Positions 8,959 to 63,079 of a stretch of DNA of 64,000 bases are shown here, in pieces. Origin of the DNA: Octopus vulgaris. Taxonomy: Eukaryota. Made by a program: the position numbers and the translations under genes. Numbering within the stretch: position 1 is the stretch's first letter; each line of letters starts with the position of its first letter. The notes below the pieces were generated by a model. The model saw only the letters and a list, made by a program, of their open reading frames with translations. It had not been told where the DNA came from and searched no databases. The stretch lies in contig OX597822.1 in NCBI GenBank assembly GCA_951406725.2, positions 5,952,001-6,016,000 of the forward strand, read 5' to 3'.

Positions 8959-9451
8959 TTAAAATACTTGTATTTTTGGATGGGATATAGTATTTTCTTT
9001 TCCTTTAATGCAAACTGTCAAATTTAGCCTAAGCACCGTGTTCTCAACACACCAACATTGTATACAGTCACTGGTCACATGTGCTCTATATACAACCACA
9101 TTTCTTTTCCTTGTTTCAGTTATTAGACAGAGGCCAAACTGGGGCCCCACCTTGAATTGTTAGTTGAATGAAATGACCCCAGTATTTATATTTTTTTAAA
9201 GTCTGGTTCTTATTTTGTTGGTCTCGATTGCTGAACTGCTAAGTTATAGGGATGTAAAAATCCCTACAGTGGTTGTCAAGTGGTGGTGGTCTATCAAATC
9301 CATTCACAAAGCTTTGGTTGGTCAGAGGTTCTAACAGACACCCTAGGTGCCAAACTCTGGGACTGAACCCAGAGCCATGTAGTTGGGAAGCAAACTTCTT
9401 ACCACACTGCCACACAAACATATCCAAACTACATGCTACAGACAATCACAT

Positions 9452-10198
9452 GCATGTATTCACAAATACACCTACATGTGTTCACAAATACATCTACATG
9501 TATTCACAAATACACCTACATGTATTCAAAAATACACCTACATGTATTCACAAATACACCTACATGTATTCACAAATACGCCTACATGTATTCACAAACA
9601 CACCTACATGTATTCACAAACACAACTACATGTATTCACAAACACACCTACATGTGTTCACAAATACATCTACATGTATTCACAAATACACCTACATATA
9701 TTAACAAATACACCTACATGTGTTCAAAAATACACCTACATGTGTTCACAAATACACCTACATGTATTCACAAATACACATACATGTGTTCACAAATACA
9801 CCTACATGTGTTCACAAATACACCAACATGTATTCAAAAATACACCTACATGTGTTCACAAATACACCTACATGTATTCACAAACACATCTACATATATT
9901 CAAAAATACACCTACATGTATTCACAAATACACCTACATGTATTCACAAATACGCCTACATGTGTTCAAAAATACACCTACATGTGTTCACAAATACACC
10001 TACATGTATTCACAAATACACATACATGTGTTCACAAATACACCTACATGTGTTCACAAATACACCTACATGTATTCAAAAATACACCTACATGTGTTCA
10101 CAAATACACCTACATGTATTCACAAACACACCTACATATATTCAAAAATACACCTACATGTATTCAAAAATACACCTACATGTATTCAAAAATACATC
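9452..10198 (+). repeat. 22-bp minisatellite (CCTACATGTATTCACAAATACA), about 34 copies
   Basis: Direct inspection; accounts for the periodic ORFs 9273-10479. Confidence 0.95.
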
Positions 10199-10351
10199 TG
10201 CATCCACACTACACAAAATCCTATGCACACATTCATAAACGCATCCACGTTACACATGTGGCATGCTACATCAACACTACCCTCAGTTACATTTACCTCT
10301 TCCTAAGCTTGTCTCTATTGCACACTGTCACAAGCACATATTCTTACATGA

Positions 10352-13263: not shown

Positions 13264-13587
13264 CAGCACTCTGTCGGTTATGGTAATGAGGACTCCAGTC
13301 GATTCAGTCAACAGTACAACTTACTCATGAAATTAACGTGCATATGGCTGACCCCTCCACAGACACATGTAACCATAACGTAGTTTTCAGGAAGATTCAG
13401 CATAACACAGAGTGTAACAAGGCTGGCCCTTTAAAATACGAGTACTTCTTATTTTTGTCAGGTGAGTGGATTGGATCAACACGAAATAAAATGTCTTGCT
13501 CAAGGACATGACGCATCACCAGGAATTGAACTCACAACCTTATGATCATGAGCTGAATACCCTAACCACTAAGCCATGTGCCTTCAC
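13264..13587 (-). mobile_element. Old SINE related to family C
   Basis: Degenerate match to 49901-50289. Confidence 0.65.
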
Positions 13588-49900: not shown

Positions 49901-50289
49901 TTTTTTTGGAAGCACTCCGTCGGTTACGACGACGAGGGTTCCGGTTGATCCGAATCAACGGAACAGCCGGCTCGTGAAATTAAAGTGTAAGTGGCTGAGC
50001 ACTCCACAGACACGTGTACCCTTAACGTAGTTCTCGGGGATATTCAGCGTGACACAGAGAGTGACAAGGCCGGCCCCTTTGAAATACAAGTACAACAGAA
50101 ACAGGAAGAAAGAGTGAGAGAAAGTTGTGGTTAAAGAGTACAGCAGGGATCACCACCATCCCTGCCGGAGCCTCGTGGAGCTTTAGGTGTTTTCGCTCAA
50201 TAAACACTCACAACGCCCGGTCTGGGAATCGAAACCGTGATCCTACGACCGCGAGTCCGCTGCCCTAACCACTGAGCCATTGCGCCTCC
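49901..50289 (-). mobile_element. tRNA(Arg-like)-derived SINE, family C
   Basis: Minus-strand head GGAGGCGCAATGGCTCAGTGGTTAGGGCAGCGGACTCGCGGTC; flanked by CTCTTTTTATAG repeats. Confidence 0.88.
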
Positions 50290-57783: not shown

Positions 57784-58016
57784 AAGGCGGCGAGCTGGCA
57801 GAAACGTTAGCACGCCGGGCGAAATAGTTAGCTGTATTTCGTCTGCCGTTGCGTTGTGAGTTCAAATTCCGCCGAGGTCGACTTTGCCTTTCATCCTTTC
57901 GGGGTCGATTAAATAAGTACCAGTTACGCACTGGGGTCGATGTAATCGACTTAATACCTATGTCTGTCCCTGTTTGTCCCCTCTATGTTTAGCCCCTTGT
58001 GGGTAATAAAGAAATA
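57784..58016 (+). mobile_element. SINE family B (tail 1)
   Basis: TSD GATATACCT at 57773-57781 and 58017-58025. Confidence 0.9.
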
Positions 58017-59137: not shown

Positions 59138-59366
59138 ACAATTACCGCCAAACATTCTGTCCGACGTTCTAACGCCTTTATTACAACCAGGAAACTTGTA
59201 AGGACTGAACAAACTTTTCTGTACACTTATTTACATTATTTACATCCGACGGCTATTTGTCCTCATCTTTGTTGTTTCGGTTGATATACCCTCCAGCCTT
59301 CATCAGGTGTCTTGGGGGAAATTTCGAATCTGGGTTCTCATCCCTAAGGTATTTTCTATGTTGTTG

Positions 59367-59404
<38 letters not shown>

Positions 59405-59408
<4 letters not shown>

Positions 59409-59479
59409 TCACTGCTGGGAATCGAACTCGGAGTCTTGGGGTTAGTAGCCCGCGCTTTTAACCACTATGCCATATGCCC
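59405..59479 (-). promoter_or_regulatory. tRNA-like Pol III head inside the pLTR
   Basis: A box TGGCATAGTGG, anticodon-like arm GGGCTACTAACCC, B box GAGTTCGATTCC. Confidence 0.7.
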
Positions 59480-59486
59480 GTGGGCA

Positions 59487-60061
59487 TCAATAACAATCTG
59501 TTAAGCAACAACTACCCACAAAACATACTATCCACTCCAAATATGAAGAAAAGAGAGGATGCAACCAATAAACTGTCCACAATCTGTCTACTCTACGTGA
59601 AAAGCCTCTCCGAAAAGATACAAAAGATATGCGGCCCATATGACATCAGGACAGTATTCAAGGGTAATACAATACTTCGCAAATATCTCCTTCGAGTAAA
59701 ACCACCAATAGAAGAGAATATCACCAAAGACTGCGTGTACTCCATTCCATGTAGCTGTGATAGGTTATGCAAAGGCGAAACATGCCGCCCCCACTAAATA
59801 AGGGTAGACGAACATCGCAAAGCTTTGACACGAGGAGATATTGATGAATTGGGTATAGATGATCATTTATGGACAAATGGAGACCACCTCCTGTGGGACG
59901 AAGTTAAAATAATAGACAGAGAACACCACTGGAAAATACGAAAACTAAAAGAAGCAGCACATATGCTAGGACACAACAACTTTTTAAGCAAACCGAGTGC
60001 AGATATGAAGAGCATATGGGAACCGGTATTAAGGAAGGATAGGAAAATATTAGATTTATAA
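59487..60061 (+). pseudogene. Penelope-like RT C-terminus and GIY-YIG endonuclease
   Basis: NNYP..YVKSLSEKIQKI..DIRTVFK..VYSIPCSC..GETCRP..RVDEHR..LWDEVKIID..RKLKEA. Confidence 0.88.
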
Positions 60062-60137
60062 GCCGTAAAATTCACTCAGTAATTACCCACGGGCATATGA
60101 CATAGGAATGAGAACCCAGGTTCGAAATTTTCCCAAG

Positions 60138-60181
60138 ACACCTGATGAAGACTGGAGGGTATATCAGCCGAAACGTTGCGT
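60138..60181 (+). ncRNA. Minimal hammerhead motif in the pLTR
   Basis: ACAC-CTGATGA-a-GACTG..CAGCC-GAAA-CG-T-T-GCGT; partial minus-strand copy near 59272-59311. Confidence 0.7.
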
Positions 60182-60679
60182 TAACAACAAAGAAGATGAG
60201 GAAAAATATCCGTCAAATGTAAATAATGTAAATAATGTACATAATTCCTCATCTCTTAAATATAGAACTGTATTTTCTGTACATTCTGATATTTTAATGA
60301 TAGGATACAGTATTATTTTCTTTGATATTTTTCGAGTAAAAAGAGTGCCTCGTGAAAAAAAGAAAGAGATCATTATAATCTTTTAGCTGATGATATATAT
60401 ATTAGGGTCAAATTTATTACAATGTTTAAGGGCTACTGCTAATACTGTATTGATTCTCGTCAATATCTGAATTAGAGGATATTAGCCCTGGACTGATCTT
60501 AGAGAACTCCTGTGTTTACTACAAGCTGGAAAATAGCAGAATTTGAAATGATTTGACCGGTTGATAGTGTTACGTACCAGAATCATTCGTACACCTCACC
60601 TTCCAGGTTTCTCACCCAAGATTCGGGTCAACAGTCTTTAGTCAATGTCACTCTTCTATCTGTTTATTCATCCTACACG

Positions 60680-61570
60680 GTCGCTATCATTGTCGTCGTC
60701 ATCGTCGACATCCTCCTCCTCCTCATCATCATCATCGTCGTCGTCACCTTGTTGTTGTTGTTGTTGCTGTTATTGTTCTTCTTCTTCTTCTAGTGGTTGT
60801 TTTTGTTGTTCTTGTTCTTGTTTTTGTTGTTGCTGTTGTTGTTGTTCTTCTTCTTCTTTTTCTTCTTTTTCTTCTTCTTTTTCTTCTTCTTCTTCTTCTT
60901 CTTCTTCTTCTCCTCCTCCTTCTCCTTCTTCTTCTTCTTCTTCTTCTTCTTCTCCTTCTTCTTCTCCTCCTCCTTCTTCTCCTCCTCCTTCTTCTTCTTC
61001 TTCTTCTTCTTCTTCTTCTTCTTCTCCTCCTCCTCCTTCTTCTTCTTCTTCTTCTTCTTCTTCTTCTTCTTCTTCTCCTCCTCCTCCTCCTCCTTCTTCT
61101 TCTTCTCCTTCTTCTTCTTCTTCTTCTTCTTCCAATTCTTCTTCTTCTTCCAATTCTTCTTCTTCTTCTTCTCCTCCTCCTCCTTCTTCTTCTTCTTCTT
61201 CTCCTCCTTCTTCTTCTTCTTCTTCCTCCTCCTCCTCCTCCTTCTTCTTCTCCTCCTTCTTCTTCTTCTTCTTCTTCTTCTTCTCCTCCTCCTCCTCCTT
61301 CTTCTTCTTCTTCTTCTTCTTCTTCTTCTTCTTCTTCTCCTCCTCCTCCTCCTTCTTCTTCTTCTTCTTCTTCTTCTTCTTCTTCTTCTTCTTCTTCTTC
61401 TTCTTCTTCTCCTCCTTCTCCTTCTCCTCCTCCTCCTCCTCCTCCTTCTCCTCCTCCTCCTCCTCCTCCTCCTCCTCCTCCTCCTCCTCCTCTTCTTCTT
61501 CTTCTTCTTCTTCTTCTTCTTCTTCTTCTTCTTCTTCTTCTTCTTCTTCTTCTTCTTCTCCTTCTTCTTC
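60680..61570 (+). repeat. ~0.9-kb (TTC/TCC)n trinucleotide tract, mostly polypyrimidine
   Basis: Direct inspection; accounts for the ORFs 60645-61829. Confidence 0.95.
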
Positions 61571-63079
61571 TGGCCCTGTCTACTTGCCCTTTGTTGCCAC
61601 AACTCTTTATGTCGCGGCAGTTGTTTCCATTAGATTCTCTTCTCACCAACCACCAAGTGCAGAACCCGTAACTTGTTTGTCAAATCAATCCACGCATTCA
61701 ATGGCAAGCACAATCATATGTGTTGAGATGTCTCTCAACGTACAATTTCTTTTTTTCGATGCAGTCCTTAATTATTATACCTGGGCGGTTTTCCTAGATC
61801 TCTTTGTTATTGTCAGTTTAGATAGGTAAGACCTAATTGATTGAGACAAAGTCGTAGCCATTAGCAGTGTTTGGAAAATGTTTACACCACATCTTGTAGG
61901 TTTCCATGTTAAAGTATTGACATATTGCCCAATGAACTTGGCAAAAGCTGGAAAGTCTTGCAGGATATTGGCCATGGAACAGGTTGTCACTTTTTTTCTT
62001 CAGTACATTTAAAATTCCGTTTTAGTTTTGTCTTGTGCTTTAGTTTTCAACATTTTGTTTTGTCCTGATCTGTAACTTTTTAAATTTGTTTTATTGTTTT
62101 CCAGTTTGAAATTTATTGTTTCCATGTATGTAGGGACAAGTTTTTGTGTTATCGTATTCAACTTAACGGTTTTTCAATATTTGCATCTAACTATATATTC
62201 TAGTCCTACAGTTGTTATTTCGTCATAGCTGTCTATTTTTATATATTCATTAGACACCGCTCACCTCGAGTGCAAGAGAGTTAATATTCTATCCATATAA
62301 ATTTTGAGTCGGTGACGTTGGAACGTAGTCAATAGTTTTCTTTTCTATTTTTTCTGTGTAAGTTTCTCAGTGTACTAAACTTGCAGTCTATTACTTTGAT
62401 GCAGTAGTTTATAACTAGGATGGCTGGTGAATTTAAATGTTCATTTTGCTTTTAGTAATGAGTTCGGAGTTTATAATATTAAGTTTGGCTCTTAGGGTAG
62501 CGAGCTAGCAGAATCGTTATCATACCGGTCAAAATGCTTAGCAGCATTTCGTTCGCCTTTACGATCTGAGTTAAAATTCCGCCGGGGTCGATTTTGCTTT
62601 TCTTTCTTTCGAAGTCGATAAAATAAATAGCAGCTGAACACTGAAGTCGATGTTATCGACTTACCTCCTCCCCCGAAATTGCTGGCCGTGTGCCAAAAGT
62701 TGAAAGCAATATTAGTTTTGCTCTACTGTAATAATCTTTCCCAACTCACTCCTTCCTTTCTGAGTGTTGTATTTTACCAGTTTCATCTACTCTTAGATAT
62801 TTATATGACTGATTCTGGTCTAATTCTCGGATGTCTATGTCTAACTCAATAGTCTCACTTATAATGATTAAAACTCTTCTTATTTGGATTTCGTACATTT
62901 CTCTAGTTCCATATTAAATTGTTATGTCTCGGATGAATTTACGAACACTATTCATTGGTTTTGAAGTCATCTATTCAGAACAGATGGTTTATAGTTTGTA
63001 GTATCTGTAACCAATGACAGTTTCATTTAGTAGATTTGTTAATGGAGTTTGGCCAAGAAGAAGAGGAATAATGGGTATC

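Follow-up and report, generated by a model that had tools for sequence, protein, structure and literature searches.

Poseidon_Ac (PAc) of the anole Anolis carolinensis is among the described Penelope-like elements (PLEs) closest to the one reported here. Its protein cuts and extends both DNA strands, reverse transcription starts at two internal sites in the start of the open reading frame (ORF), and the ORF begins in a hammerhead ribozyme, with uncleaved RNA as the dominant substrate (PMC11167929). The present analysis concerns a Penelope family of Octopus vulgaris, one copy of which lies in a stretch of 64,000 nucleotides (contig OX597822.1, positions 5,952,001 to 6,016,000 of assembly GCA_951406725.2), referred to below as the window. 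The family resembles PAc in having an ORF for a reverse transcriptase (RT) with a C-terminal GIY-YIG-type endonuclease, an ORF start that lies over the hammerhead, two 3' ends that form a tail and, in our reading, an uncleaved RNA template (PMC11167929). It differs in the tRNA-derived head, with the A and B boxes of an RNA polymerase III (Pol III) promoter, that its pseudo-long-terminal repeat (pLTR) carries; neither is described for PAc in the available sections of the same account. Furthermore, the octopus ATG precedes the whole ribozyme core, and the motif reads VYSIP...YKG, which distinguishes the family from what is reported of PAc.

The other parts of this architecture have separate precedents. 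The minimal hammerheads of metazoan PLEs, like those of the octopus family, have no helix III, a short helix I, an unpaired base before stem II and a palindromic centre, and they occur mostly singly or as opposite-strand pairs 100-700 bp apart (PMC4209133); the cleavage triplet of the octopus family is GUU, and the terms 'tRNA' and 'polymerase III' do not occur in the available text of that paper. The nearest functional analogue is the SINE-like SM-alpha of Schistosoma (with Sj-alpha; SINE, short interspersed nuclear element), in which a Pol III-type promoter is likewise followed by a type I hammerhead; as portrayed in the portions of the reports at hand, the ribozyme of SM-alpha is canonical and fast, and the element, which lacks an ORF, spreads by way of tandem multimers (PMC6765202, PMC6155905), whereas the unit in the octopus serves as terminal repeat and ORF start of an element that codes for protein, and its ribozyme is minimal. 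Non-LTR retrozymes are also short hammerhead units derived from PLE pLTRs, and a few head-less tandems are found here too, but retrozymes form tandem arrays and circular RNAs, with Pol III unmentioned in the accessible parts of the reports (PMC7229834; bioRxiv 10.64898/2026.07.22.740005), and the octopus copies are mainly inverted pairs. The transcript of Drosophila virilis Penelope begins inside the upstream pLTR, as we propose for the octopus family, but from a promoter resembling that of long interspersed nuclear elements (LINE-like), TATA-less and with a downstream promoter element (DPE), and with an intron; the part of that study available gives no A or B boxes (PMC2377424). Hammerheads in pLTRs, their overlap with the ORF, inverted arms and tails are already known. 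What seems new is a tRNA-type promoter fixed in the pLTR, which was not found in the literature searched, mostly at the level of listings; Repbase, Dfam or the octopus repeat library (PMC13282606) may already contain the family. In our view the most probable account is that the window holds a dead Poseidon-type Penelope insertion, that the pLTR of its family carries a fixed tRNA-derived head 29 nt past the ORF stop, and that head-bearing copies mostly start at this head, likely through a Pol III start.

The insertion (59215-60283; Table 1) consists of a minus-strand pLTR arm, a 3' remnant of the ORF and a plus-strand pLTR, with an 11-bp direct repeat on each side, the last 6 bases of the left repeat (TTTTCTGTACA) also agreeing with the element end. 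The minus arm presents, in order, the 14-mer CCCACGGGCATATG, the A box, the B box, (AAT/AAC)n, the hammerhead core CTGATGA (59306-59300) and an AT-rich end near 59226. In the plus arm the same 14-mer at 60086 is followed by a jump from about +15 of the head (+1 being its first base) to just before the ATG. This deletion was considered as a spliced intron and rejected by eye, there being no GT-AG fit but a TAG microhomology instead. The plus-strand hammerhead comprises stem I (60137-60141/60178-60182), the core (60142-60148), an extra A, stem II (60150-60154/60165-60169), GAAA and the palindromic AACGTT, with a predicted cut after 60177; stem II and stem I contain one mismatch each. Aligned over 144 columns, the two arms are 82% alike. 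Of the ORF, just the final ~575 nt remain, with one premature stop and a 3-nt deletion, and 562 of 598 aligned bases agree with the family majority. Both ORF pieces in the window align to the C-terminus of the A. carolinensis protein P0087 (E values of 7e-8 and 5e-7), which is presumably PAc or a close relative; a Pfam search of these pieces gave no match. With a truncated and prematurely stopped ORF and two damaged ribozymes the window copy is dead. It is a head-started arm joined to an ORF-derived arm.

Table 1. Features of the Penelope insertion, in window coordinates.
Feature	Position	Strand	Basis or remark
Left target-site duplication TTTTCTGTACA	59215..59225	+	11-mer present just twice in window
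Inverted pLTR arm, head position -7 to short (tail-less) 3' end	59226..59486	-	sequence
Remnant of hammerhead, stem II with a mismatch, cleavage site and 3' strand of stem I lost by deletion	59274..59311	-	sequence
(AAT)n(AAC)n spacer, length variable	59359..59404	-	sequence
tRNA-derived head, 75 nt, +1 = 59479	59405..59479	-	A box 59472-59462, B box 59429-59418
5'-truncated Penelope ORF 3' end (late linker and GIY-YIG-type endonuclease)	59487..60061	+	alignment to P0087
3' pLTR, most of head and spacer lost by internal deletion; long (tail) 3' end	60086..60272	+	sequence
Copy of ORF start, ATG 60108, frame continues through hammerhead	60108..60272	+	window frame; majority ORF start; P0009 N-terminus homologous
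Minimal type I hammerhead, two mismatches in this copy	60137..60182	+	sequence; architecture per PMC4209133
Right target-site duplication	60273..60283	+	second window copy of same 11-mer

The head is a fixed part of the pLTR in an ORF-bearing Penelope family and no independent insertion of a SINE. It lies downstream of the ORF in 26 of 30 hits to the ORF end (nine of the hits being near-identical copies on one contig), and the remaining four retain its first 9-20 bases. Among 69 heads taken in order of position along one contig (70 loci, with four listed positions skipped as overlapped by other loci), part of the hammerhead follows downstream in 60. An independent SINE with this head and another body was rejected; nine head-only copies have unrelated DNA downstream. 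When the arms are instead anchored on the hammerhead (n = 96), 54 have the head and 42 lack it, 28 of the latter stopping at the (AAT)n tract. The preliminary description of this locus had named the 14-mer, the two boxes, the (AAT/AAC)n tract, the hammerhead and the AT-rich end in the arms, had noted that the plus-strand pLTR lacks the rest of the head, and had taken the head to be integral to the repeat. The motifs can be read directly, the missing part is explained by the internal deletion described above, and the counts given here bear out the third point.

In the majority head the A box begins at +8 and the B box at +51. In a set of 35 host tRNA sequences, which covers only seven isotypes, the four that match this head best are all tRNA-Arg. 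A search by motif for a donor of the type tRNA-Arg(ACG) returned 0, so that the donor isotype rests on this partial tRNA set. ARAGORN made no call in the window, nor on the majority head at a lowered threshold: the head retains promoter boxes and no cloverleaf. Since the genome has further SINE-like heads that resemble this one at 62-68%, it is possible that the head was captured through a SINE. The pair of A and B boxes was found in 0 of 33 related Penelope elements, on metagenome contigs, with at least 250 nt past the estimated ORF end; in this test the endonuclease end was matched by 47 of 80 loci. The bases that immediately precede the head repeat its first ten bases imperfectly and in inverted orientation (window 60077-60100, majority -14 to +10), possibly as a fossil fold-back junction of the capture event. 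We also note abundant short repeats, some with tRNA-like heads, at 13519-13582 and 50225-50280 of the window and in the families D19 and D20 (e.g. 57790-58004 and 62500-62714).

The family is abundant in the 2.8-Gb genome. As exact matches of 22-mers, whose ratios are rough because the patterns differ in CpG content, stem II was found 7,569 times (that is, at least 7,569 hammerhead-bearing arms), the head start 3,155 times and a stretch of the ORF ~170 nt upstream 711 times; reversed control patterns gave 0 genome-wide matches, so the window motifs are not there by chance. A majority-rule reading of the retrieved copies spans 2,960 nt, beginning at head position -7 and finishing where the 3' pLTR ends, and contains an ORF of 838 aa whose ATG lies just before the hammerhead. 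The majority protein is 37% identical to P0087 over 812 aa and 57% identical to P0009, the N-terminus of which bears the same ribozyme-encoded peptide. A real family copy matches Pfam RVT_1 (E value of 1.4e-10), while Pfam GIY-YIG has no match on the family's own pieces and matches only the homologue P0025. The pLTRs stand in tandem or inverted arrangement with a tail of 30-40 nt, as is characteristic of PLEs. Judged from its sequence, the element is a PLE of the Penelope/Poseidon clade with a single ORF for an RT plus a GIY-YIG-type endonuclease at the C-terminus. No intact ORF was seen among the copies, the longest open piece listed being 465 aa. The tail and ORF-start stretch was also matched on contigs of four organisms, which indicates the presence of the family there only. 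Nine loci on one contig are near-identical with shared flanks and are likely part of a larger amplified repeat. Five further loci have internal deletions that join body positions ~116-237 to the head (-11 to +14), and these junctions are common between loci.

Most head-bearing copies begin at the head, likely through a Pol III start there. The 5' ends of the 69 heads fall at -7 to +1 in 55 cases and at -17 in one, with 13 at least 40 nt into the ORF side. The 54 head arms of the hammerhead-anchored sample comprise 20 that end at +5 to +60, 20 at -8 to +4, five at -9 to -40 and nine beyond. In other words, 20 of the 34 arms still at risk end in the interval from -8 to +4, compared with 20 of 54 over +5 to +60, an approximately 7-fold higher rate per base (binomial P of 1e-12 under a constant rate). 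The T of the A box sits 8-15 nt past the ends at -7 to +1, and an A box 8-15 nt after the start is the usual layout of a type 2 Pol III promoter.

The 3' ends of the family form two clusters ~40 nt apart, with 79 and 66 of 165 ends. Most insertions are inverted pairs with one 3' end of each kind; single arms are also a main form, and head-bearing tandem arrays are not. A direct repeat of 9-14 bp was found at the ends of 37 of 76 two-armed insertions, compared with 1.2% of random pairs. In the mechanism that we propose, Pol III would start the element RNA at the head, after which would come (AAT)n, the ATG, the hammerhead within the start of the ORF, and the tail. By analogy with the anole Poseidon, the element protein would cut both DNA strands and RT would be primed at two internal sites ~40 nt apart on uncleaved RNA. 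Each cDNA would either extend to the 5' end of the RNA and run off there or stop before it, and the cDNAs would join in the middle, leaving head-to-head inverted arms and a duplication of 9-14 bp. Priming in the pLTR of a head-started RNA may also yield a short cDNA, likewise ending by run-off at the 5' end of the RNA; the SINE-like short copies would then be side products of master elements that also give rise to the ORF copies. The 40 ORF-linked and 163 head-start copies compared have the same diagnostic variants and linked haplotypes (lowest P of 0.06), and both diverge from the majority by 4.3-4.9% outside CpG, which argues against a separate non-coding lineage. The best reading of the short copies is that they are run-off cDNAs made on uncleaved RNA of the element; as to the source of the short RNAs, the data fit both the 5' pLTR of full-length RNA and the 3' pLTRs. 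At five loci the same other repeat is inserted in the (AAT)n spacer of the family, and the family itself often starts in (AAT)n tails of other elements.

The sequence TTTT, which terminates Pol III transcription, is absent from the 2,960-nt majority element, where 5.35 occurrences are expected by base shuffle (P of 0.002), and from its ORF, where 2.94 are expected by synonymous-codon shuffle (P of 0.027). Individual family copies contain 34 in 96,054 nt, and at one site six of some 41 aligned pieces, the six belonging to five distinct loci, read TTTT. In 23 related control ORFs of at least 400 aa, with lengths of about 475 aa, there is no depletion (161 compared with 147.7 expected), two of the 23 being likewise without TTTT; nine ORFs of other retroelements, picked by eye, have 21 compared with 17.8 expected. 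GGGG is also absent from the majority element, with 1.05 expected (P of 0.28). The lack of TTTT is consistent with a Pol III-made coding RNA and is suggestive, not decisive; on this basis even the coding RNA may be made by Pol III. A bolder proposal, which we regard as doubtful, is that the entire ~3-kb RNA of an autonomous coding retrotransposon would be made by Pol III from a captured tRNA or SINE promoter, with an 838-codon ORF purged of TTTT and translated uncapped, the same promoter flooding the genome with SINE-like run-off copies.

The majority hammerhead is of the minimal Penelope type, with no helix III, an extra base before stem II, the palindromic AACGTT and a GUU triplet, and it sits inside the start of the ORF. 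Predicted pairing probabilities are 0.97-0.99 for stem II and 0.71-0.78 for stem I; Rfam, at both gathering and E-value thresholds, gave no match. In a simple model the active dimer as drawn (-22.7) has no advantage over two monomers (-27.2) or over the minimum for the dimer (-31.4), and the ribozyme is predicted to need a dimer or the help of a protein. The 5' ends of 322 arms do not pile up at the predicted cut but are even from -30 to +17 around it, with four non-deletion ends at 0 to +3, and cleaved RNA was rejected as a template on these grounds. As a cut would part the promoter from the priming sites, head-bearing copies would have to derive from uncleaved RNA. Nothing found indicates that cleavage aids copying. 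Six loci carry recurrent head-less units of ~290 nt made of the hammerhead part and the first ~120 nt of the body; some stand in tandem with common junctions, and three have two hammerheads. These units could be true retrozyme-like non-autonomous derivatives.

It was earlier proposed that the family is an autonomous Penelope whose ~270-nt repeat is a self-transcribing, self-cleaving SINE/retrozyme unit, to be sought also as tandem copies. The family does bear an ORF, but the window copy is not autonomous. That the pLTR spreads independently, by self-cleavage and circles as in SM-alpha, seems to us quite improbable. The excess of ORF-less over ORF-bearing 22-mer matches is what such spread would give, as are the few short two-hammerhead tandem units, but these units are head-less, and the copies are chiefly inverted pairs or single arms. 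No variant or difference in age separates the short copies from those linked to the ORF, no 5' ends gather at the cut, and the ribozyme lacks helix III and lies within the ORF start.

The remaining two alternatives concern where and how the RNA starts, and several observations weigh against a Pol III start at the head. The head pattern forces a match from +1 and so inflates the +1 bin of the 69 heads, a bias from which the hammerhead-anchored sample is free; the arms and heads were all drawn from the first 65 Mb of one contig. Of 69 copies, only 36 retain an intact B box GTTCRA and nine an intact hammerhead, as is expected for decayed copies. No copy seen was complete in the sense of having a 5' head, the whole ORF and a 3' pLTR, and a single copy continues from the start of the head into the body, as far as about base 161 of it, which shows that a head-started RNA can continue there. 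The positions -14 to +10 form a hairpin of -9.1 kcal/mol, matched in stability by only two of 584 body windows, and it forms the centre of 351 exact fold-back palindromes, compared with 409 exact ORF-contiguous head junctions genome-wide; the 5' boundary may therefore be partly made by RT. If the RNA started upstream, by RNA polymerase II (Pol II) or read-through, the head would be a passenger whose hairpin stops RT or folds the cDNA back. We think this unlikely, although it is the stronger of the two. An inverted head lies directly upstream in just 16 of the 69 heads, and many ends at -7 to +1 are joined either to unrelated flanking DNA or to a different part of the opposite arm; stem II, which comes close to the hairpin in stability (-8.1 kcal/mol), gives no comparable pile-up of 5' ends; if RT stalled, the stop would be expected near +10, where the hairpin has its 3' foot, and not in the loop and the 5' arm; and the lack of TTTT is left unexplained. 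The RNA might also start at the head by Pol II, from an internal TATA-less promoter such as the available account describes in the pLTR of D. virilis Penelope (PMC2377424), the tRNA boxes being relics. A capped RNA would ease translation of the 838-aa ORF, and an initiator-like word is present at about -20 to -14, with five of the 54 arms ending at -11 to -20. However, the start interval is where the A and B boxes would put it, both boxes are kept in the majority, and TTTT is missing from the element whereas the 23 related ORFs are undepleted; we give this possibility little weight. A Pol III start at the head is the interpretation most consistent with these data.

Three other repeats of the window may be mentioned. 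A tandem array with a 22-bp period occupies 9321-10258, and a CTT/CTC microsatellite of ~800 bp (60750-61570) is the source of spurious long open frames. The segment 56740-57060 we take to be a decayed fragment resembling the endonuclease end of another non-LTR retrotransposon.

The Penelope promoter that has been studied to date is LINE-like and without a TATA box. If the proposed reading is true, the swap to a tRNA-type promoter would show how a single unit can be both a coding retroelement and a SINE, and the family offers a route by which promoter-plus-hammerhead elements like SM-alpha could arise. Its genomic copies map the RNA 5' end and both priming sites, which would open the Penelope mechanism to in vivo tests. 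Should the full mRNA be made by Pol III, the family would provide one of the rare examples in nature of a Pol III transcript that is both long and translated.
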